From: Escherichia coli
GTDB lineage: Bacteria; Pseudomonadota; Gammaproteobacteria; Enterobacterales; Enterobacteriaceae
Reading direction: 5' to 3' (one strand)
Length of the DNA: 64,000 bases
Assembly: GCF_011045215.1 (NCBI RefSeq)
Contig: NZ_CP049201.1
The position numbers were made by a program, and so were the translations under genes. The notes under the pieces were generated by a model. It saw nothing but the letters and a program-made list of their open reading frames with translations, was not told where the DNA came from and searched no databases. How positions within the stretch are numbered: the stretch's first letter is position 1; every line of letters starts with the position of its first letter. This document shows, piece after piece, positions 11,874 to 60,589 of this stretch.

Positions 11874-12980
11874 TCATACTAGTCGGAGCGAAGCCCTTGA
11901 TGGTGTTCTTTTGTTATTTCCGCCACTAATTGCCGCAACTCCATAAAGCAAACTACTCAATTCATCGAGAGGTACGTTAAGCTCATTACTCAAGTGAGCC
12001 AGATAAATGCCGTCTCCAGCCAGAGCAGTCATCATTTTTTCTATAACGAGTGATCTTTCGCGCTCAATTCCCCCCGGCTCACCGGTTCGATACCCCTTTG
12101 CCGTCGCATCACGCATCAAACTATTATACTGCCATTCCGTCAGCATATTTAGATTGCGCATTCTGACAATCAGGGCCATAGCCGAAACTTTCCAGAGTGA
12201 TTTCAATTGCACAATTTTATCAAACGTCGGGACCACCATCTTAACGGCCATCACGTTTTCCTGAGGCATTAGAAATGCAGAAGCAAAAGCATCCGCTTCA
12301 CGCTCAGCATCCTGCCCTTTGACTTCCCCTTGACGATGAAGTACTAGGTGAGCCAATTCATGTGCGGCATCAAAACGGCTGCGTTCACCTGACTTGCGTG
12401 TGTTAAGAAAGATATAAGGAACATCATCTTTCCAGAACGAAAAAGCATCAATACTCGCTGTTTCCTCTGAAAGCCAGAACACCTTAACTCCAAATTTCTC
12501 AAGTAGATGAACAACATTGGTGATACTCTTCTTACCAATCCCCCAAGCCTCGCGTATCGCTTGGGCAGCGACCTCAGGCTCACTTCCACGGAGATTCGGC
12601 AATTGAGGCGAAGGAAGAGTAAAGCGAGCATTAAAATAATCGCTAAGCATAACCCCTAAAGCACCTGCACCAATTGCCGCATGCTGGTCAGCAGCTTTTG
12701 TTGTGCGTAATGAACGAAATGAAACAGTCAATGGATCAATTGTTTCAACATCATCGCCAAAGAAAAAAGCCTCTGGATAATTTAAAGCACTAGCGTATGC
12801 GCGTACCGTCTCTGCCGTGGGTGCATAAAGACAATAATCTTTTTCGTATTCAATTACGATACGACTAGATAACCCGGTTCGCCTCGCCAGTTCTGCCAAG
12901 GTCAGTTTGCGTCTGATCCGCGCTAGCTTTAGTCGAGACGGATTAAAAAGACGTTTGACATCATCAACAGTGTTACTCAT
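11874..12980 (-). CDS. Fused XRE-family HTH / ImmA-IrrE (COG2856-type) zinc metallopeptidase protein; candidate antitoxin or regulator
   Basis: N-terminal HTH (LKLARIRRKLTLAELARRTGLS) and HEXXH motif (HELAHLVLH); ATGA start/stop overlap with upstream gene. Confidence 0.75.
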   Translation of the reverse strand: MSNTVDDVKRLFNPSRLKLARIRRKLTLAELARRTGLSSRIVIEYEKDYCLYAPTAETVRAYASALNYPEAFFFGDDVETIDPLTVSFRSLRTTKAADQHAAIGAGALGVMLSDYFNARFTLPSPQLPNLRGSEPEVAAQAIREAWGIGKKSITNVVHLLEKFGVKVFWLSEETASIDAFSFWKDDVPYIFLNTRKSGERSRFDAAHELAHLVLHRQGEVKGQDAEREADAFASAFLMPQENVMAVKMVVPTFDKIVQLKSLWKVSAMALIVRMRNLNMLTEWQYNSLMRDATAKGYRTGEPGGIERERSLVIEKMMTALAGDGIYLAHLSNELNVPLDELSSLLYGVAAISGGNNKRTPSRASLRLV

Positions 12981-13648
12981 TTGCTTTCAACTGAAATTGA
13001 TATGTCATCATCAAAATCCTGTTCAGGGAAAATATCCGCACCTTCAAATTGCAGAGGAGCTAAAATAATTCGCTCACTCCACGCGCTTACTCTGGCAAAT
13101 CCGTCCTGATTCACCATCCCTACCGGATACGACACCTCACAGCGAATTTCTTTATTTGCCGCATCATAATAATACAGAACGATATAAGTTCGGGTGCTAT
13201 CTATCGGCGTGATCTCAGCTTTGCCTGAATGTAAGGTATCTGCTTGGAACATATCGAATGTACCCGGATTGTTGTGAACAATCGAGCGAGTTGCCTCTCC
13301 CTTTGCATTTTTGGTTTTAGGCAATCCATCAGGACGCCCGGTATGTCCGTCACCTGAGGTAATAATCAGATTAACCCCTTTGCTTGAATTAACGACCATT
13401 TCCATGCGATTGACTACTTCAGAAGACCAGCCGTTACCCTTACCAATCAGAATACGGCGAAGCGCGGCAACCATCTCACTCCAAAAGCGGAATCCAGCAT
13501 CCACTTTAGGGTGGAGCTTACTGGATTTGCGTCGCTCGTATAAAGCAGACATTAACGCATCGCGAATATCATTTTCTGTAAAGCCCAGTTTACTAAGTAC
13601 AAAATCCGAATCAATTCCTGTATGCAGAACACAATGAGGCATATTCAT
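12977..13648 (-). CDS. Hypothetical protein, partner of the HTH-peptidase gene (candidate toxin/effector)
   Basis: Track ORF 12977..13666; ATG at 13648 with GGGAGA upstream; no recognisable motif; translationally coupled to downstream gene. Confidence 0.55.
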   Translation of the reverse strand: MNMPHCVLHTGIDSDFVLSKLGFTENDIRDALMSALYERRKSSKLHPKVDAGFRFWSEMVAALRRILIGKGNGWSSEVVNRMEMVVNSSKGVNLIITSGDGHTGRPDGLPKTKNAKGEATRSIVHNNPGTFDMFQADTLHSGKAEITPIDSTRTYIVLYYYDAANKEIRCEVSYPVGMVNQDGFARVSAWSERIILAPLQFEGADIFPEQDFDDDISISVESK

Positions 13649-13884
13649 GAAAGTTTCTCCCATCACTTTTACTTCATGATTTTATCATAAAATTTATGCA
13701 AAAATCAAGAAGTGACACCCTGCAAGCGATTGTAGACTTTCTCTTGTTTTCTTACGTTCCTGCTCTCCAATTGCGCAATTGATTTCTTCAACAATATGAG
13801 AGTACACATCATAAACCTCCGACTGCAGCCAGCAACCGGAGCCTCATTCTTCAGATACCAGAACAACTCACTGCGACCTATTCG

Positions 13885-18005: not shown

Positions 18006-18628
18006 TTTTGAATCACCGTTGTTGCATAGGAATAAATAAAAGGGAGTTTTACATATTTCTGGTCAATGGCATCTTTCAGAAAATAGCCTATACCATCACC
18101 ATATTCTGGTATCTGAATAGAAAAAACACTGTCCGATACAGTCACGCTCACATCAAAAGTGTGCTGCAACGGCGGGTCTATTCCGTTTTTTCCATGAATA
18201 AAGCGCGCCACACGGCGCTTTAACCAGTCAATGCAGAAATGCGAACCGTCAGCCTTGTAAAAATTCCACGTTAATATTCGTTTGAAATAATCATCCGGAA
18301 CATACGATGCCTGCCCCGGAACATAATTCCGCATTGCCGCATAAGGGATTGTATTGTATTCAATGGTATCGTATGCGCCGCGTGCAATAGCCTCCTCGGA
18401 AACCTGTAGTAAAGGCCTTTCAACGCCATAAATCCCGAGAGCAATCCAGTCCAGCAATTGCCCGGTTATTGATTCCGATGTCCAGCATGGCAATGCCAGA
18501 TTGTTGAGTGAATCGAGGTATTCCTGAGCAATTTCATTGTATGCATCAAAGAACGCAACAACATTCGGATCATCTCTGTACTGCACAAACGGATAAGCAG
18601 GGAGAATTTTTTCAGTCAGATATTGCAT
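18002..18628 (-). CDS. Tail/baseplate protein (Mu gp48-like position)
   Basis: Track ORF 18002..18736; internal ATG at 18628 (MQYLTEKILPAY...); sits between the J-like gene and the tail fibre. Confidence 0.5.
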   Translation of the reverse strand: MQYLTEKILPAYPFVQYRDDPNVVAFFDAYNEIAQEYLDSLNNLALPCWTSESITGQLLDWIALGIYGVERPLLQVSEEAIARGAYDTIEYNTIPYAAMRNYVPGQASYVPDDYFKRILTWNFYKADGSHFCIDWLKRRVARFIHGKNGIDPPLQHTFDVSVTVSDSVFSIQIPEYGDGIGYFLKDAIDQKYVKLPFIYSYATTVIQK

Positions 18629-19838
18629 ACTTGTTAACTTGAACCTGTGATGCCACCGTCGAAAAATAGGAATAGGTATCGCCATAAACCAGGCTTGTGT
18701 CTTTTGCCGGAGGAACAATATGGCCATTAATGCCAATGCTCACACTGATTGTTGAGATCAACGTCGCATCAACCAACAATCTGACGGAACTGGTAAAAAT
18801 ATCCTGGATTCGCAGCAGATTTATCGGGTGTCCGACTTCAATAGAATTGATGTAATCAGCAACGTTTTGCTGCACAGCCATAGCAATACCCGCCGGATCA
18901 ACATAATCATCAGATACAGTGTTCCAGGTGATTAGCACCATGACGTTTTGTGATGACGGGATAACGAACGGCACCTGATAAACATCTGGCGAAACGGTTA
19001 TTGAAACCGTGCGTTTTTCCACTGCCGCACCAGATGGATTGCTAACATCGTTGGTCAGTTTCGAAATATCCGGTACAGATTTGTAAATAGCATAAGCCAC
19101 ATCATACGGATCACCGCCACCAACAACCGCAACCCATTTCCCCAGCGACGACTGCCGGAAAGAAATCAGGTTTTCTCGCACACCGCTTACTGATTTGAGC
19201 ATCGCTTTAAAGCAATCCGGTGTTCCCTGCACACCAAACATGCCGGACTCCATGACTTCGGCGCGGTAAGATGCCCACGTTTGCGCCTCCTGACCTGGCA
19301 TCCCTGCGGTAAGGTTCGTGCATTTTACAGGCTGATCTTTGGGTACCGATGTAATGACCTGCGTTACGGTTCCTTCCGGTACAGCCCATGAGCCTGACGT
19401 TGTGGCCACACAGTAGACTGGCTCAGTCTGCCCGCTTTCCGGCACCACCGTATCGCGGGAAACTGCATACTGGTAGTTGCCGTCACCGACAACAAATCCT
19501 TTAGGGATACCAAACCCCGGCAACGCCTCAAACACCACGTATACCGCCGTATTTGTACTTAATCCCTTCTGTGCTCCATAAATGTTTCCGAGTTGCATCA
19601 ATAACGGAATATTTGCGCCGTATGGGCTTACGGAGTTAATAAGGTCCACCCGCGCCTGGTCTATTAATGCCAGCGCCCCGACTGCCGTGCTGGCAAGGTC
19701 AGTAATAAGCCCCGCCGGAAGGTTGGCTGTATATCCAGGTACTTTTTCAGCAACTCTGATGATAAGATCTGCAAGCAAATCATTGGGTGGCGTAGGCTGC
19801 GCCCCCGCACTGGTCATAGTAATTGGTATTTCTGACAT
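18612..19838 (-). CDS. Baseplate J-like protein
   Basis: 408-aa ORF in baseplate context; assignment by position and size only. Confidence 0.5.
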   Translation of the reverse strand: MSEIPITMTSAGAQPTPPNDLLADLIIRVAEKVPGYTANLPAGLITDLASTAVGALALIDQARVDLINSVSPYGANIPLLMQLGNIYGAQKGLSTNTAVYVVFEALPGFGIPKGFVVGDGNYQYAVSRDTVVPESGQTEPVYCVATTSGSWAVPEGTVTQVITSVPKDQPVKCTNLTAGMPGQEAQTWASYRAEVMESGMFGVQGTPDCFKAMLKSVSGVRENLISFRQSSLGKWVAVVGGGDPYDVAYAIYKSVPDISKLTNDVSNPSGAAVEKRTVSITVSPDVYQVPFVIPSSQNVMVLITWNTVSDDYVDPAGIAMAVQQNVADYINSIEVGHPINLLRIQDIFTSSVRLLVDATLISTISVSIGINGHIVPPAKDTSLVYGDTYSYFSTVASQVQVNKYAISD

Positions 19839-19850
19839 ATTTACTCCATT

Positions 19851-19876
19851 AAAAAACCCGCTTTCGCGGGTTTTTT
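19851..19876 (-). terminator. Hairpin terminator (bidirectional form) right after the cargo nuclease gene, inside the tail operon
   Basis: AAAAAA-CCCGC-TTTC-GCGGG-TTTTTT. Confidence 0.75.
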
Positions 19877-19878
19877 AC

Positions 19879-21039
19879 TTATTCAACCTCTTCTAAACTG
19901 CTCACTCTGGACCCTCGGCGGAAATTATCATCATTTTTAACATACTCGTATGAATCCAGAATCAAACCAGATATGCGAAGTATATCTTCCGGATTAGTTA
20001 TATGTATCCTTTTACCATCCGTATCAAGTCGAGCTCGTCTTATTTCATTCAACTGAACTTCACTAAGCGAAATAGGTAAAGTTATAAATGAAGATTTTTT
20101 ATCATAAAATCTTAACAGCCATCTATTTGTTTTACCATTCAATAGTACACCGAAATATGACTCAGTATCTTTATATTCTATATTATCTTCTGTTTGTATG
20201 ATTTGTTTTACCCTTTCAAATAGCTCCAATTCTTTGGCTGTGGTTATTATGTTGGGGTTTTCTTCATCAACAATGGCGTTATTAACTTGTGTATCCGTTG
20301 CATCATTTTCTTTAGTTTGCTCTACCGGTTGTGTAGATAGCCCGGAAACCACCATTGCGCTAACAGCGCGCTCAACGGCCTGTTTAACTAATGGAGTCAC
20401 GAACTCAAGAAATCTCTGATTAAGTTGTCTCTCAATATTTGAACGACTAGCAACATATCGAACAAACTCCAGATCAACTTCACGAAGACTAGAACTGATT
20501 GTTTTAGTAAATGAATTCAAATAAACACTTTCTTCAGCCAGTGTCCGTAAAGCCTCTGGTTTGAATTTATCATAACGAAAACGAAATAATTGTGTAATAT
20601 CGGAGTGAGTTAGAGAATCCATTCTTAATTTTAAAAACGGCGTTGAATCCATTATGTTTTTTTGTTTCAAATCCGTAAAAAAACGCCATTCAACACCATT
20701 TGTAATGGCTGATATAGTAACTTCCGGTGTTGAATTAAAATATCTTGATAGCTGTGGGCAGTGATTATCAATTTGTTCTGAAAACGATTTCGCCTCAATG
20801 AACATCACAGGAACATCATGACAAAATAAAGCGTAATCAACCCGTTCATTAGCCTTAACCCCGGGGAAGTCAGCACTATACTCAGCTTTGACTTTTCTTG
20901 GATCATACGGAGTAAAACCAAGAATATCTAGTAATGGCATAATGAGTGCTTGTTTTGTCGTTTCTTCAGTTGTACAAAACACCCCCATTTTTGCAACATG
21001 CTCTGTGTGTATTTTTAACTTATTTGCAAAATTTTCCAT
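19879..21039 (-). CDS. PD-(D/E)xK nuclease-fold protein (HsdR-N/Mrr-like N-terminal domain) with unknown C-terminal domain; cargo gene
   Basis: Track ORF 19879..21054; ATG at 21039 with GGAGGAGA upstream; motif ...VDYALFCHDVPVMFIEAK... (D...E-x-K); own AT-rich upstream region and own terminator. Confidence 0.7.
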   Translation of the reverse strand: MENFANKLKIHTEHVAKMGVFCTTEETTKQALIMPLLDILGFTPYDPRKVKAEYSADFPGVKANERVDYALFCHDVPVMFIEAKSFSEQIDNHCPQLSRYFNSTPEVTISAITNGVEWRFFTDLKQKNIMDSTPFLKLRMDSLTHSDITQLFRFRYDKFKPEALRTLAEESVYLNSFTKTISSSLREVDLEFVRYVASRSNIERQLNQRFLEFVTPLVKQAVERAVSAMVVSGLSTQPVEQTKENDATDTQVNNAIVDEENPNIITTAKELELFERVKQIIQTEDNIEYKDTESYFGVLLNGKTNRWLLRFYDKKSSFITLPISLSEVQLNEIRRARLDTDGKRIHITNPEDILRISGLILDSYEYVKNDDNFRRGSRVSSLEEVE

Positions 21040-21188
21040 GCTTGTCTCCTCCATGGTAACAATATGTATTTTGCAAATCCGAAATAATATATGTCAATAT
21101 GCTCCAGCTTAGAAAATTACTCGCCCCCCTAAAATATCTCTCTACAGCACTCCAAACCAAGGTAAAAGTTTTATCATAAAACTGTGAT

Positions 21189-21536
21189 TCATACCGGCAC
21201 CTGCGTCCGGTAACTGGTCCCATTAAAAAACACAACATCGATGTTATAGGTGGGGTTATCTGCTCCATCTACCTTTGAAATTGCCAGTGATGCAAAATAC
21301 CCAGCAAACTGTTGCTGAACCATGTTCACATAGTAGTCTGGGTAAATCTGCTGCACGATGCACTGCTGCGCAGGAATACCGTAATTCGCGTAAAACGGCG
21401 ACTCCCCCAATCCCAGCTTTAACGTCTGAATGAGCGTCGTCAGCCAGCCGTAGGAGAAATCACCGTTGGCGTCAGATTCTACTGCAACCCATTTTTTGTT
21501 GCCGTTCGCGTCGGTGACGCGGCCCCATGTTCTCAT
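21189..21536 (-). CDS. Baseplate/tail protein (gp25/W-like position)
   Basis: 115-aa ORF between the spike gene and the J-like gene; positional call. Confidence 0.4.
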   Translation of the reverse strand: MRTWGRVTDANGNKKWVAVESDANGDFSYGWLTTLIQTLKLGLGESPFYANYGIPAQQCIVQQIYPDYYVNMVQQQFAGYFASLAISKVDGADNPTYNIDVVFFNGTSYRTQVPV

Positions 21537-21721
21537 CGTGCCCCCATCACTTTAACTAACTCTGTCAGTACTGGTGAAAAGGCAAATGCTAAAGCTACGA
21601 GTGCAGCGGTGTAATACATGCGTCGTAAGGTATTGCTTTTTGCCACTAATTTTAAGGCTTTCACAATCCAGTCTCCTCCGCTAAAATTAATCACGGAAGA
21701 CCTCCAAACATACGTAATCAT
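21533..21721 (-). CDS. Small hydrophobic protein
   Basis: Track ORF starts at TTG; internal ATG at 21721; one predicted TM helix. Confidence 0.3.
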   Translation of the reverse strand: MITYVWRSSVINFSGGDWIVKALKLVAKSNTLRRMYYTAALVALAFAFSPVLTELVKVMGAR

Positions 21722-21818
21722 CCCTTGCGTATTCAAGGTGAGAAACAGAAAACCCCGACTGGGCCAACAGTCGGGTTTTTCGTTTTATGGTCAGAATTTA
21801 AAGTGAAATGAACCGGTA

Positions 21819-34227: not shown

Positions 34228-35041
34228 GTTTGCCCTTCTCCGTTAAAAATTCGTCGGGTAGTTTCTGAGGGGCGTAGATCGGCAGTGCATCGCAACTGCA
34301 ATAAACCTCCTCCCCGGCAGCAGTGATTTCGTCATAAAAACCATATACGGGCTTAATCAGCCCCTGCTCCAGCGCCCACGAATCGCGGAGGAGATAAATT
34401 TTCTCGTCGCGCTCTTTGTGGTCCTGTCGGTATTTGTAGCCCGGACGCCGCCAATTCGAATGCCAGCGCAGAGCAATCGCTCCACTCTGAACAGCCAGCA
34501 GATACTTAACGTTGCTTGCCAGCTTATGCCCCTGGTCAATTGCCACCCGACGACTGATAAAATCCATATCCTTCACGGATTTCTGAAACCCGGCCTTCAC
34601 TTCCCGGCGATCAATTTCGCTCACCCCGTCAGGCGGAATGGACGTAACCCAACCCTGAAAACGCTGTATGGTTTTCTCGATGGCCTGTTCTCGGTTGAGT
34701 TTTATCAGGTTGGCACTGGCGAAAATTCGCCTGTCGAGTTCCTTGCGAAACTCAGGTTTCAGTTTTTCAACAGTGATTTTTTTAGGGCCGTCAGGAGGCT
34801 GATCCCGTAATGCCCCGCCGTCGATGACAAGACGGCTGTAGATAGCGGTGAGGTGTTTTCTGGCTACGGTATCATCAGGGGTTTCTCGCTGAGCGGCTAC
34901 ACGGAGTTTCCGGCACCATTCGAGCAATGATTTTTCGCTATCCCACCCGTGATTTACGTAGTAGTTAACGGCATCCGTCAGAACCTCATACAGCGTCCTG
35001 ATCCGTTTCTTCTTCCTCACCGCCCGGCTGGAAATTGCCAT
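34208..35041 (-). CDS. Head morphogenesis protein (Mu F-like / SPP1 gp7 family)
   Basis: Track ORF 34208..35179 overlaps portal; internal ATG at 35041; follows the portal as in Mu-like head modules. Confidence 0.5.
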   Translation of the reverse strand: MAISSRAVRKKKRIRTLYEVLTDAVNYYVNHGWDSEKSLLEWCRKLRVAAQRETPDDTVARKHLTAIYSRLVIDGGALRDQPPDGPKKITVEKLKPEFRKELDRRIFASANLIKLNREQAIEKTIQRFQGWVTSIPPDGVSEIDRREVKAGFQKSVKDMDFISRRVAIDQGHKLASNVKYLLAVQSGAIALRWHSNWRRPGYKYRQDHKERDEKIYLLRDSWALEQGLIKPVYGFYDEITAAGEEVYCSCDALPIYAPQKLPDEFLTEKGKREFNRA

Positions 35042-36425
35042 CAGGCGTCTCCTGCTTCGGTGGTTCATAATTCGCCAGCGCGTCCACATCAATGATGAGT
35101 GGAGCTTCGCCATAGGTTTGCGTGGCATTAACAAGGCTTGCCAGCCATTCAGTGACGGCGGCACGGTTTTCAGGATCAACCTGTGGCGACACGGCAGAGA
35201 AAAGTGCTATCGCCTGTTGAATCACTTTACTGTCGCTTTCCCGGCGTTTGTCCGGCGACTCCTCCACCAGCTCCTGCCATGTCGCGGTAAATTCACGTCG
35301 CCACTGGTAAAACGTGGTTTTATAGTCATCAGTTATGATGTCCGGGTAATCATTTTTCAGCGACTGATAAAATTCCTCGTTCCAGGCGATGTACTGCACC
35401 AGGCGTTCGAAATAATCCATCACGGGTTCAATCTGCTGGCGTACACCATCGATATACTGGCTGATGGCTTTCGAATCTTCGGTCCCCTCACCGAAACCAT
35501 TCGAAAAGGCTTCCTCTTTGATGAGGATCGCCGGAACGTCACTCCCTGACGCAATATCGGAAATAATATTGTCGCGTGCAGCGTTTAGCGCACCATCGAT
35601 GTTTTGTAGATTTAGCGAGGTAACGTCCTCATCCTTCCCGATACTAAGCACACCTTTATTTTTTGCCTCTTTGACGTTTTCCCTTTTTCGTCCCGTGGCG
35701 GCAGCCATGATCCCGTCAAGTTTCGAACCGTACTGCACAACTTTAGCTACCAGTACGCCCGCCTTCTGGCTGACGAGATCATTCGCCTCCATCGTGTTGA
35801 TATAGGATTTCAGGGAATAAAGAACGCGCTGAAACACACTTCGTCCGGTGAATCCGAACGATGAACTCTGAAACTCCAGATAAATCGGTGTGCCGTTGAA
35901 GATTTTCAGTGTGCGTGACGGATGCCAGTCTTTCCCACCAATCTTCAGTTTTTTATTGGCTTCCTGGAAAAACGGGCTGTTGGGGTTCTGGTCAGTCACC
36001 ATCGAACCGGAAGCGTTCAACGGGTCCCACGCGTTGATATACACGTCATCTTCTGTCAGTCCGAACGTCGGAAGCGGTTCACGACATGGAACGCTGTCGG
36101 TGCCCACGCCGATCGCTGCAGCACCGTAGCAACGAGACAGAAAAAACAGATTTTTAATCTTCTCGTTGACCTTCATGCGTTCCCATACCTCCTGAAAACG
36201 CCTCACAACCCTCTCGTCAGGGTCTGTCTCCACGTTATACTGGCGCGGCTTACACATCGCCATCAGTATGGGTTTTTCGACAAGTTTTCCGCCCAGAGGA
36301 TGGAATTGCCACAGCTGCTTACACAATTCATAGCCAATGTCGGTTCCCGGCTGAATTTCTTCAGCCTCAAGAATACGCATCAGTGCCGAACCGAGGCCGC
36401 CAGTAATCTCGATCTCTGCCATCAA
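34986..36425 (-). CDS. Portal protein
   Basis: 479-aa ORF immediately downstream of the large terminase. Confidence 0.7.
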   Translation of the reverse strand: MMAEIEITGGLGSALMRILEAEEIQPGTDIGYELCKQLWQFHPLGGKLVEKPILMAMCKPRQYNVETDPDERVVRRFQEVWERMKVNEKIKNLFFLSRCYGAAAIGVGTDSVPCREPLPTFGLTEDDVYINAWDPLNASGSMVTDQNPNSPFFQEANKKLKIGGKDWHPSRTLKIFNGTPIYLEFQSSSFGFTGRSVFQRVLYSLKSYINTMEANDLVSQKAGVLVAKVVQYGSKLDGIMAAATGRKRENVKEAKNKGVLSIGKDEDVTSLNLQNIDGALNAARDNIISDIASGSDVPAILIKEEAFSNGFGEGTEDSKAISQYIDGVRQQIEPVMDYFERLVQYIAWNEEFYQSLKNDYPDIITDDYKTTFYQWRREFTATWQELVEESPDKRRESDSKVIQQAIALFSAVSPQVDPENRAAVTEWLASLVNATQTYGEAPLIIDVDALANYEPPKQETPDGNFQPGGEEEETDQDAV

Positions 36426-38852: not shown

Positions 38853-39104
38853 TTAGTCCTGATTTTTATCCACCCTGAGTAGTTCACGCAGGGCAAAGGC
38901 ATCCCCTTTTCTGGCAAGCTTAAACAATGCCGCCCGTAGTTCGGCTTCACCTTTCGCTCTGCCCTTACGGATGGATGCGTAAAAATCTGTCATTGCTTCC
39001 CGATTTTCTTTCAGTCGGTTCAGATCAACATCCAGAACGTCAGCGATTTGTTGTGCAGTCATCCGGCACGCTGCCAGAGACTCGACTTTCGAATACGGAA
39101 TCAT
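38853..39104 (-). CDS. Hypothetical small protein
   Basis: 83-aa ORF just upstream of TerS. Confidence 0.35.
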   Translation of the reverse strand: MIPYSKVESLAACRMTAQQIADVLDVDLNRLKENREAMTDFYASIRKGRAKGEAELRAALFKLARKGDAFALRELLRVDKNQD

Positions 39105-39990
39105 TTGTCACCCCCATTGATATGCAGGGTGTCTTCTTCCTGTATTTTTCGTGAAGGATTTTTACTGCAGCGTTGTTCCAGGTGACCTGATGGTGAATGC
39201 GTTTATGGCTGGCCCCCATCAGTGAGATTTTTACGCACGAGGGCGCATACATGACGGAGTAAAAACTTTTAACGTAGGTTCCGGAATCCAGATACAGCTC
39301 GGTCATTCCGCCGCTGTTTTTCTGCGTCTGTTTCTGCCCTAACTGGACAGCACCGATCGTCATAAACAATTCACCACAGCGACCGAGATTCGTGTACGTA
39401 TTCACATCCTCGTTAATGCGCCCCATGAATGAGAACGGTCGATCAACCGAACAGATAAAGCTGTTCATTGCCTTGCGTTTCACCCACGAAGCATGGCCGC
39501 CATTGTCACCAAGAAAATCCCCGCCCTGCGACATAGCGATGGAAAGCGCAGGTATTGATTCGTAGTACGCCAGCATTTCAGAAAGGATCGCATCCAGTTT
39601 TCTTATCGGGAAATAGGCCTGGTCATAGTTGCGATCCACCCGAAACTGAAACTCGTGATAATCATCATCGAGCTGAATGAAGTATTTACACCCGACCAGT
39701 TTTGCCAGGTCGAAACAGGCATTACGGGCGTAAAAAATTGAGCGGCGATCACCGAAATTATCGGCTTCGTCAAAACGACTGGCTATATCGGCTTTGGAAA
39801 ACACCAGCACCTGTTCACCAAATTCAGCTATGTACTGATGCCGTGTCTTATCTTCATCATCAACAACGATAAAAATTTTCCCGGTATAGCCAGCACGACG
39901 CAACGTCCGGTAAGTCAGAACTTTGTCCGGTCGCCCGTGAGTCAGAATAAAGGCGCAAAAATCATCACGCATATTCCTCCTCCCCGCCAT
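39040..39990 (-). CDS. Hypothetical protein with glycosyltransferase-like (GT-A-like) motifs
   Basis: N-terminal FILTHGRPD and later DDD motif (IQLDDDY) suggest a nucleotide-sugar transferase fold; alternative ATG at 39972. Confidence 0.4.
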   Translation of the reverse strand: MAGRRNMRDDFCAFILTHGRPDKVLTYRTLRRAGYTGKIFIVVDDEDKTRHQYIAEFGEQVLVFSKADIASRFDEADNFGDRRSIFYARNACFDLAKLVGCKYFIQLDDDYHEFQFRVDRNYDQAYFPIRKLDAILSEMLAYYESIPALSIAMSQGGDFLGDNGGHASWVKRKAMNSFICSVDRPFSFMGRINEDVNTYTNLGRCGELFMTIGAVQLGQKQTQKNSGGMTELYLDSGTYVKSFYSVMYAPSCVKISLMGASHKRIHHQVTWNNAAVKILHEKYRKKTPCISMGVTNDSVFESRVSGSVPDDCTTNR

Positions 39991-59353: not shown

Positions 59354-60589
59354 ATGTCTAAATTACCAACAGGTGTCGAGATTCGAGGTAAATACATTCG
59401 CATCTGGTTCATGTTTCGAGGAAAACGATGCCGGGAAACATTGAAAGGCTGGGAGGTTACTAACAGTAACATTAAAAAAGCCGGGAATTTAAGAGCGTTG
59501 ATAGTTCATGAAATCAATTCCGGTGAATTTGAGTATTTAAGACGTTTCCCCCAGTCCGGCACTGGGGCAAAAATGGTGACAACTAGGGTCATAAAAACGT
59601 TCGGGGAGCTTTGTGATATCTGGACAAAAATTAAAGAGACAGAGTTAACAACAAACACAATGAAGAAAACGAAATCACAATTAAAAACACTCAAGATAAT
59701 AATTTGTGAGAGTACCCCGATATCGCATATTCGTTATAGCGATATCTTAAACTACCGGAATGAACTGCTGCATGGAGAAACGCTTTACCTGGATAATCCA
59801 AGATCCAACAAAAAAGGAAGAACCGTGCGCACAGTTGATAACTATATCGCCCTACTCTGTTCGCTGTTACGTTTTGCGTATCAGTCGGGATTTATATCAA
59901 CCAAACCATTTGAAGGAGTAAAAAAATTACAGCGAAACAGAATAAAGCCTGACCCGTTATCTAAAACAGAATTCAATGCATTAATGGAAAGTGAAAAAGG
60001 ACAGAGCCAGAACTTATGGAAATTTGCCGTTTACTCAGGACTTCGTCACGGGGAACTGGCAGCTCTGGCGTGGGAGGATGTGGATCTCGAGAAGGGAATT
60101 GTGAATGTCAGAAGAAACCTGACGATACTTGATATGTTCGGTCCCCCAAAAACAAATGCCGGGATCCGGACAGTAACACTACTGCAGCCTGCTCTTGAAG
60201 CACTGAAGGAGCAATACAAACTGACCGGACATCATCGCAAAAGCGAAATCACCTTTTATCATAGGGAGTACGGCAGAACCGAAAAGCAAAAACTGCATTT
60301 TGTTTTCATGCCCAGGATGTGTAACGGAAAACAGAAACCTTATTACTCGGTAAGCAGTTTGGGTGCGAGATGGAATGCAGCAGTAAAACGTGCTGGTATT
60401 CGCCGCCGTAATCCGTACCATACGCGGCATACTTTTGCCTGCTGGCTGTTGACGGCAGGAGCGAACCCGGCGTTTATAGCCAGCCAGATGGGGCATGAAA
60501 CTGCGCAGATGGTGTATGAAATTTACGGTATGTGGATTGATGACATGAACGACGAACAGGTAGCCATGTTGAATGCGCGGTTATCGTAA
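59354..60589 (+). CDS. Site-specific tyrosine integrase
   Basis: 411 aa; C-terminal catalytic region HTRHTFACWLLTAGANPAFIASQMGHETAQMVYEIYG (R...HxxR...Y); next to attR. Confidence 0.9.
   Translation: MSKLPTGVEIRGKYIRIWFMFRGKRCRETLKGWEVTNSNIKKAGNLRALIVHEINSGEFEYLRRFPQSGTGAKMVTTRVIKTFGELCDIWTKIKETELTTNTMKKTKSQLKTLKIIICESTPISHIRYSDILNYRNELLHGETLYLDNPRSNKKGRTVRTVDNYIALLCSLLRFAYQSGFISTKPFEGVKKLQRNRIKPDPLSKTEFNALMESEKGQSQNLWKFAVYSGLRHGELAALAWEDVDLEKGIVNVRRNLTILDMFGPPKTNAGIRTVTLLQPALEALKEQYKLTGHHRKSEITFYHREYGRTEKQKLHFVFMPRMCNGKQKPYYSVSSLGARWNAAVKRAGIRRRNPYHTRHTFACWLLTAGANPAFIASQMGHETAQMVYEIYGMWIDDMNDEQVAMLNARLS

Follow-up and report, generated by a model that had tools for sequence, protein, structure and literature searches.

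Exclusion genes of prophages can be linked to the immunity repressor: lambda carries rexAB behind cI, BTP1-like phages carry BstA, and genes co-transcribed with the repressor are made in the lysogen, as established for rexAB. Phage morons in the sense of Hendrix and colleagues have an own promoter, an own terminator, a deviating composition and a patchy presence among relatives. Folds known to read modified DNA include SRA, EVE/PUA, the Mrr-N winged helix and the sulphur-binding domain. A recent preprint describes END nucleases (END-PaCF1; bioRxiv 10.1101/2025.03.31.646159) as a nuclease joined to an iEndoIII sensing domain, without a methylase. Here we analyse a stretch of 64,000 nucleotides of Escherichia coli DNA (contig NZ_CP049201.1 of assembly GCF_011045215.1), which as a whole is called the window, and a gene in the tail module of its prophage that encodes a 386-aa HsdR-N-type nuclease. 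We read it as a lysogen-expressed, stand-alone restriction-type nuclease acting on incoming foreign DNA, a reading that we regard as evenly poised between right and wrong.

The conservation of the protein was assessed in an alignment of 94 homologues with 26-73% identity. Its sole Pfam matches are HSDR_N (E 4e-8) and HSDR_N_2 (E 1e-7), which cover residues ~25-133, and the same pattern recurs in 92-93 of the 94 homologues (E<=0.001). E25, D68, K84, Y100 and G115 are invariant and E82 and Q96 are conserved in 99%, with a D...ExK...QxxxY set that we take to be the nuclease motifs of HsdR. Judged from fold and motifs, the N-terminal domain appears catalytically intact and is predicted to cut DNA. 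The PD-(D/E)xK motif proposed in the sequence-only reading thus holds, as does its comparison with HsdR-N, the fold being of the kind found in HsdR and Type IIG enzymes. The parallel drawn there to Mrr does not: Mrr_cat (PF04471) matches none of the 94 members at E<=0.001 and one at E<=0.1, and membership in the Mrr family was rejected on this search.

Pfam searches of the 386-aa protein revealed no superfamily 2 (SF2) translocase (ResIII or Helicase_C), and neither Pfam nor the AlphaFold2 model revealed a fused gamma-class methyltransferase or target-recognition domain; the NCBIfam model of full-length HsdR scores an insignificant 18.9 bits against a cut-off of 729. Genes for HsdM or HsdS adjoin the nuclease gene in none of the loci examined (the nearest HsdM lies ~8 kb off, in Edwardsiella), and apart from repressors no partner gene recurs across the chromosomal, prophage and phage contexts examined. 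With neither motor, methyltransferase nor conserved partner, the name “type I restriction endonuclease” given by the Prokaryotic Genome Annotation Pipeline (PGAP) is a misnomer, and the discrimination between self and non-self must reside in the protein itself.

In temperate phages of Proteobacteria, Firmicutes, Actinobacteria and Fusobacteria, the nuclease gene nearly always follows a prophage immunity repressor immediately and in the same orientation. One example is provided by Rac-like prophages of Citrobacter and Kluyvera, where it lies on the same strand as the CI/S24 repressor gene and begins 22 nt beyond its end. The order of repressor and nuclease is the same in Klebsiella phage KpF5, a Salmonella Mu-like prophage and Enterobacter prophages; in E. 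coli PCN061 the nuclease gene follows racR, and in E. coli STEC384 it likewise stands behind the repressor. Fusobacterium phage FNU_1P carries CI, nuclease and integrase in this order, Corynebacterium phage Juicebox a repressor and then the nuclease, Enterococcus phage EG-TP1 a repressor, an ImmA-like protease and the nuclease, with the integrase further on, and S. pneumoniae phage IPP25 a repressor, one gene, the nuclease and the integrase. A similar-looking order of unannotated genes is present in Lacticaseibacillus phage P7.1.

A scan of IMG/VR with a 10-sequence alignment retrieved 206 relatives, and genomic contexts were taken from the best 80 loci, 75 of which had enough upstream sequence. 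The baseplate cassette of the window accounts for 23 of these 75 loci. In the remaining 52, the co-directional gene immediately 5' of the nuclease was examined; it is a regulator in 50 cases, namely, a RacR-type repressor (27 loci; 63% identical to PGAP-annotated RacR), a CI/LexA-type S24 repressor (19), a short helix-turn-helix regulator (three) or an Arc-like protein (one). The genes upstream of the nuclease represent at least five different regulator families. This placement behind the prophage repressor makes an anti-phage role considerably more plausible, and from the genomic context such a role seems credible.

Other locations were observed as well. A 78%-identical homologue in E. coli SW070917 (locus L019, 8968-10125) belongs to another lambdoid prophage, where it is encoded on the opposite strand, with the Q antiterminator on one side and the lysis genes on the other. 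This version is found in three E. coli genomes and occupies what is presumably the position where Stx phages carry stx. In Porphyromonas phages the nuclease gene adjoins HicAB and an “acr candidate”. A phage-inducible chromosomal island (PICI) was not recognisable among the nuclease loci examined. In the Salmonella Mu-like prophage (loci L024 and L025, 7230-8000), a Dam-type methyltransferase (MethyltransfD12) is located 63 nt 3' of the nuclease gene in convergent orientation; DNA methylases also occur within a few kb in KpF5, PCN061, STEC384 and the loci L007 and L026, which may reflect no more than the methylases that such prophages usually carry.

The family comprises 3,348 clusters of 50% identity at E<=1e-3 and 289 at E<=1e-30 (HMMER search of 1.84 billion representatives), and its members are mostly 340-400 aa long and matched over nearly their full length. 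In PHROGs it corresponds to phrog_4225, “endonuclease”, which is matched over its full length (E 1e-148). Between the window copy and seven homologues from enterobacteria, the proportion of nonsynonymous differences (pN) is 0.09-0.26 against a saturated synonymous value (pS) of 0.70-0.84, thus indicating strong purifying selection on the gene. The distribution is sporadic, with a detectable homologue in 32 of 5,426 E. coli genomes; ~700 contigs carry the exact protein, and 1,000 or more carry a nearly identical variant. The 19 phage records matching the family all apparently belong to temperate phages or prophages, as far as inspected.

The window copy forms a transcription unit of its own (Table 1). 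The sequence-only reading had described a self-contained gene of 386-391 aa within the baseplate cluster, with an AT-rich upstream region and its own hairpin terminator, and each of these elements proved real. The longest open reading frame (ORF) spans 391 aa (19879-21054, minus strand), and the ATG at 21039 is the likely start, because AGGAG stands 6 nt upstream, PGAP calls the same protein (WP_000426902.1) and the N-termini of the homologues agree. The promoter-like site was located in the non-coding spacer 5' of the gene (21040-21188; 149 nt), which has a GC content of 35.6%. The terminator escaped a simple terminator scan but is borne out by folding: its arms (19850-19861 and 19866-19877) are 100% complementary, a T-run is present, the folding free energy (dG) is -17.4 kcal/mol (z -4.8), and none of 200 shuffled sequences folds as well. 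Its flanking A/T tracts suggest that it is possibly bidirectional.

The composition of the unit is foreign to its surroundings, as seen when GC content and codon usage were compared with those of the flanking tail genes, a check that the sequence-only reading had proposed: the cassette has 35.8% GC against 49.5% in the tail module, and the GC content at third codon positions (GC3) is 25.8% in the nuclease gene and 41-60% in neighboring genes. Own promoter-like site, own terminator, deviating GC content and patchy presence in relatives together identify the cassette as a phage moron. The DNA homology between the window copy and other family copies is confined to the coding sequence (CDS; 21040 to 19912) without shared flanks; promoter and terminator belong to the version of the gene in this slot. 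Two repeats were observed. The perfect 11-nt inverted repeat ATTTGCAAAAT / ATTTTGCAAAT (21022-21032 and 21068-21078, with 35 nt between the arms) overlaps the -10 element with one arm and nuclease codons 3-6 with the other; an operator is conceivable, as is mere coincidence in DNA of high AT content. The exact 12-nt direct repeat CCATTAAAAAAC (19846-19857 and 21220-21231) begins with its left copy exactly at the left breakpoint of the cassette, and its right copy is found 42 nt into the conserved flank on the other side; it is near chance expectation in AT-rich DNA, and a recombination scar could be the alternative.

Comparison with Rac-SA53, the pPE4 record (PP818812.1) and E. coli genomes delimits the cassette sharply, with flank identity of ~95% up to 19846 and again from 21178 and nothing in between. 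The slot flanks are present in 90 of the 5,426 complete E. coli genomes, and 24 of these 90 harbor the nuclease cassette with at least 99% identity. The other occupants, among those listed, are encoded on the opposite strand; they number one to three genes per slot, occur in four or more arrangements and comprise AntA/AntB or Ant antirepressors together with hypothetical genes. An empty slot was not found among the relatives examined; all listed ones bear alternative cargo. This exchange for ant-type cargo in the same slot documents that the nuclease gene is cargo and not part of the baseplate, in line with the single-gene cargo postulated by the sequence-only reading. A conserved baseplate component present in all relatives, which would have told against that postulate, was looked for in related prophages, and they contain other cargo instead. 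A role as baseplate or tail component was therefore rejected, the PHROG category of the family being “DNA, RNA and nucleotide metabolism”.

Table 1. Features of the nuclease cassette and its flanking genes (positions in the window)
Feature	Position	Strand	Basis or remark
Variable cargo cassette (“moron”): promoter, one gene, terminator	19847-21177	-	1,331 bp; homology breakpoints and GC content
Predicted sigma-70-like promoter: TTGACA (21097-21092), 18-nt spacer, CAAAAT (21073-21068)	21068-21097	-	10/12 consensus match
Shine-Dalgarno sequence AGGAG, 6 nt 5' of ATG 21039	21046-21050	-	sequence reading
CDS, 386 aa plus stop: stand-alone HsdR-N-type nuclease, WP_000426902.1 family, PHROG 4225	19879-21039	-	
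Intrinsic terminator: 12-nt arms, GAAA loop, T-run	19850-19877	-	A/T tracts on both sides
PD-(D/E)xK nuclease domain of the HsdR / Type IIG kind, residues 1-155	20575-21039	-	
Catalytic residues (also Q96xxxY100)	D68 20836-20838; E82 20794-20796; K84 20788-20790	-	
Three-helix connector, residues 156-235	20335-20574	-	AlphaFold2 model
Low-confidence linker, residues 236-255	20275-20334	-	residues 241-252 with pLDDT <50
C-terminal alpha/beta domain, residues 256-375	19915-20274	-	YdhG (DUF1801) / YjbR (DUF419) / T4 MotA-CTD-like fold
Baseplate J/wedge gene, downstream flank, outside the cassette	18612-19838	-	phrog_6, E 1e-37; PGAP “baseplate J/gp47 family”
Conserved 115-aa tail-module gene of unknown function, upstream flank	21189-21536	-	phrog_7986

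In the AlphaFold2 model (mean predicted local distance difference test score [pLDDT] 92.3, predicted template modelling score [pTM] 0.63), the protein consists of the nuclease domain, a three-helix connector and an alpha/beta domain. The packing of the domains against each other is not confident, as indicated by the pTM value and the disordered linker. The C-terminal part had been called unrecognised in the sequence-only reading, and this stands insofar as a search with the query and the 94 homologues assigned no Pfam family to its ~230 aa; by the model, however, it resolves into the helical connector and a domain resembling YdhG, YjbR and the C-terminal domain (CTD) of MotA. The likeness to the uncharacterised proteins YdhG/DUF1801 and YjbR/DUF419 and to the “double-wing” DNA-binding domain of T4 MotA is one of fold at a sequence identity of 10-12%. 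Conserved positions of the domain are T266, T267, E270, D291, Y295 and R310. Nowhere is the protein conserved less than in the second half of this domain, with 17% identity to the query in distant homologues versus 39% for the nuclease domain. Sequence searches of the PDB with the single protein, the family profile and the profile of the C-terminal domain found no match.

The C-terminal domain is a candidate target-recognition or sensor module. A Foldseek search of AFDB50 with this domain returned family members, fragments or unnamed proteins for 49 of the 50 matches listed and one protein labelled DUF5655, while a word-indexed protein search for other architectures bearing the domain gave short proteins only, eight of which were inspected and represent N-terminally truncated forms or fragments of the nuclease family. 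With matches of these kinds alone, no shuffling of the domain is demonstrable. Many database entries of ~230 aa begin at the conserved “MD.KPFLEF” (query residues ~130-136) and comprise connector and C-terminal domain only, for example P0271, P0296, P0308 and P0338 (223-234 aa); each may reflect a wrongly called start, a fragment or a true family variant without the nuclease.

The scenario that we favor would then run as follows. The cassette would be an autonomous transcription unit of foreign composition, placed in a variable slot of the baseplate operon, from which the nuclease would be expressed in the lysogen. Its HsdR-type domain would cleave incoming DNA, chiefly that of superinfecting phages, and would probably do so as a dimer, in the manner of FokI-like and Type IIG enzymes. 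An intact nuclease that is constantly made without a methylase must spare the DNA of host and prophage by its own specificity or by an inactive state. The target would accordingly be a feature absent from both, base modification being the obvious candidate, and the likeliest seat of self/non-self discrimination would be the C-terminal domain, joined to the nuclease by the helical connector. The mode of action would be comparable to that of Type IV enzymes or END nucleases, and lysogen and prophage alike would benefit. The window copy would have left the repressor operon, with a promoter of its own and, for insulation, a terminator that would keep lysogenic transcription out of the baseplate J gene as well. 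Two further observations lend slight support to this reading of the gene as a restriction nuclease. A phage-resistant strain of C. jejuni has an HsdR-N-only gene that is absent from its sensitive sibling, with a role that its authors call unclear (PMC8713573), and a record of the Joint Genome Institute (JGI) names a fragment of the family “predicted type IV restriction endonuclease”, a label also borne by COG2810, whose tie to the family is that single JGI name.

Several points weigh against this reading. In the C-terminal domain, the positions of highest conservation (E270, D291, T266/T267) hold acidic or polar and not basic residues, which is an awkward fit with a plain DNA-binding role, and the domain is not a known reader of modified bases, its fold matching that of YdhG, YjbR and MotA-CTD only. 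The repressor linkage in IMG/VR was counted in related prophages and hence not in independent events, and lone chromosomal copies amid housekeeping genes are present in Gilliamella and Edwardsiella. The window copy is co-oriented with the late tail operon and could thus also, or only, be transcribed late. Among the 5,027 defence-protein models of PADLOC-DB v2.0.0 no family matched at E<=1, which agrees with the failure of the sequence-only reading to assign the gene to a named defence family; in the part of DefensePredictor Table S6 consulted, the protein is not among the validated systems, and a term search of that table gave no entry “type I restriction endonuclease”; and the literature yielded no functional or experimental study of any family member.

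The main mechanistic rival is abortive infection, which we consider unlikely on balance. It supposes that the C-terminal domain holds the nuclease inactive until a phage protein or small molecule binds, whereupon indiscriminate DNA degradation would kill the infected cell. This alternative is kept alive by the acidic and polar character of the conserved residues and by a weak resemblance (Z ~4) of the C-terminal fold to the small protein-binding or immunity-like proteins TriTu, PIM7, PsiB and DarA. A constitutive nuclease without a methylase would moreover need a safety catch, and the repressor-linked RexAB of lambda is a classic abortive system. However, nuclease domains of the HsdR / Type IIG type are known from enzymes of direct restriction, and the model does not confidently pack the domains against each other.

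Quite improbable, in our estimation, is a function in the life cycle of the phage itself, be it in the induction and immunity circuit, recombination and repair, degradation of host DNA or counter-defence. The tight placement in the lysogeny module between repressor and integrase, often beside ImmA-type metalloproteases, and the late-gene orientation of the window copy would fit such a function. Its sporadic distribution would not, given that close relatives lack the gene or carry other cargo and that 32 of 5,426 E. coli genomes have any homologue; the gene is also found as a lone conserved chromosomal gene outside prophages, and these phages already possess distinct recombination nucleases, RecE/RecT among them.

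A purely selfish gene, such as a free-standing homing endonuclease, would explain why a self-contained unit of foreign composition sits exactly between two conserved tail genes, with copies of CCATTAAAAAAC at the left breakpoint and in the right flank. We nevertheless judge this very improbable. No relative examined shows an empty site, and the alternative cargo in the slot indicates replacement, not insertion; elsewhere the family adjoins highly variable repressor genes instead of conserved target genes, its copies are homologous over the CDS only, and a 12-nt repeat is near chance expectation in DNA this rich in AT. To our knowledge, HsdR-N-type domains are not a class of homing endonucleases. 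That the gene is a pseudogene remnant of HsdR, for which nothing speaks but the automatic product name and the weak NCBIfam match, is scarcely believable and refuted as far as sequence analysis can do so, in view of the ~350-400-aa architecture kept at full length across hundreds of 50%-identity clusters, the strong purifying selection, a specific and conserved C-terminal domain that is absent from HsdR, and the lack of adjacent hsdM/hsdS in any locus examined. A Type II restriction-modification pair with a prophage methylase was likewise rejected, because a PHROG scan of ORFs of at least 100 aa in the prophage part from 39 to 60.6 kb found no complete DNA methyltransferase.

If the preferred reading of a defence nuclease is correct, a common single-gene system has been missed by PADLOC v2, and its C-terminal domain would add a sensing domain of a new kind to nuclease-based immunity. 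The conserved order of repressor, nuclease and integrase in temperate phages, which extends over at least four phyla, would find an explanation as well. We tentatively extend this to the rather doubtful proposal that the “repressor-linked nuclease” family is an undescribed pan-phylum class of single-protein immunity, of which the window copy, in its unusual position, may be the first member to be noticed. Its C-terminal domain would steer the HsdR-type cleavage module by recognising non-self DNA or a phage factor through a principle new to restriction and Type IV enzymes, in which case temperate phages would routinely co-express a nuclease with their repressor as a general layer of superinfection immunity. 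A compact nuclease of 386 aa with a separable recognition module could also serve as a reagent, provided that its specificity depends on DNA modification or structure. The suggestion of the sequence-only reading that the family may be undescribed holds with respect to PADLOC but needs qualification, since names already exist in databases: “endonuclease” for PHROG 4225, the automatic “type I restriction endonuclease” and the JGI label.

The wider setting of the cassette is a complete lambdoid prophage of the Rac-SA53 type (~49 kb), which spans ~11.9-60.6 kb of the window, next to the E. coli host genes ydbH-ldhA-hslJ-nifJ-ompN-uspF at ~1-11.3 kb (PGAP annotation). One end harbors the integrase (59354-60589), recET-like genes, repressor/cro/cII, replication genes, NinB and Q, beyond which lysis, terminase, head and finally tail genes follow, with the nuclease cassette in the baseplate part of the tail module. 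The location between two baseplate genes, as initially assumed, is correct for the downstream side; the immediate upstream neighbor is the phrog_7986 gene, and baseplate and hub genes lie further on (PHROG, PGAP). At the other prophage end, 3' of the tail-fibre genes, a second moron site carries two PADLOC matches on the minus strand (11874-12980 and 12977-13666), a pair identified as RmrA (E 6e-143) and RmrT (E 1e-59), which is presumably RosmerTA. The prophage with the nuclease thus also carries a known defence pair at another moron site, which we count in favor of a restriction function.

A second patch without homology to relatives of the Rac-SA53/pPE4 type (21550-21723) lies between the phrog_7986 gene and a baseplate gene and contains a 67-aa ORF (21533-21736) without PHROG match, where the relatives have a hypothetical gene of 138 bp. 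The gene at the portal position beside the large terminase (34986-36425, minus strand) is named “anti-CBASS protein Acb1 family protein” by PGAP in strain C7 (locus L003, 36703-38139); it has a weak match to the phage HI1409 family (25 bits versus a cut-off of 196) and no PADLOC model, and is probably an over-annotated portal-like protein. Just upstream of the small terminase, a 316-aa gene (39040-39990, minus strand; hypothetical in PGAP) matches phrog_842, “beta-glucosyl-HMC-alpha-glucosyltransferase” (E 5e-103), a label that may be unreliable because DNA glucosylation is unusual for a lambdoid prophage. The record PP818812.1 (“Actinobacillus phage vB_Apl-pPE4”), labelled as a phage of A. 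pleuropneumoniae, shares ~95% identity with the tail module of the prophage over several kb; either its host label looks doubtful, or the phage looks to be of very recent E. coli origin.

Set against the closest described systems, the cassette exhibits all four hallmarks of phage morons, the promoter by its consensus match, which describes its anatomy and not its function. With rexAB and BstA the family shares the logic of an accessory gene directly behind, and co-oriented with, the repressor, although the proteins are unrelated and the window copy is located outside the repressor operon, with own promoter and terminator in the baseplate cluster. A PICI-borne single gene, “FS_HsdR_like” in DefenseFinder, reportedly from the work of Fillol-Salom et al. 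in Cell in 2022, is said to have a validated anti-phage effect; the likeness is one of name only and unconfirmed. If it belonged to the same family, the window protein would be part of an already known system, which is the main threat to its novelty. Fusions of HsdR-N and HsdM found in the Zymomonas literature are unrelated.

The N-terminal PD-(D/E)xK domain with its D/ExK/QxxxY residues is common to the window protein and HsdR (EcoR124I HsdR, 2w00; HsdR fragment, 3h1t), but the former has 386 aa, lacks the SF2 translocase and adjacent HsdM/HsdS, and possesses a C-terminal domain of its own. The cleavage domain of Type IIG/IIL enzymes (BpuSI, 3s1s; DrdV, 7lo5) is alike, whereas their fused methyltransferase and target-recognition domain are absent here. 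MmeI is a further enzyme of this group. Type IV enzymes share with the window protein a single polypeptide with a nuclease and a separate sensing domain and without a cognate methylase, but the window protein has no recognised reader of modified DNA and instead a fold like YdhG, YjbR and MotA-CTD. END nucleases likewise combine a methylase-less nuclease with a sensor, which is iEndoIII in their case and the YdhG/YjbR/MotA-CTD-like domain here. Nuclease-based innate restriction without a methylase is an already known class of system, and it is the C-terminal domain that makes this nuclease distinctive.

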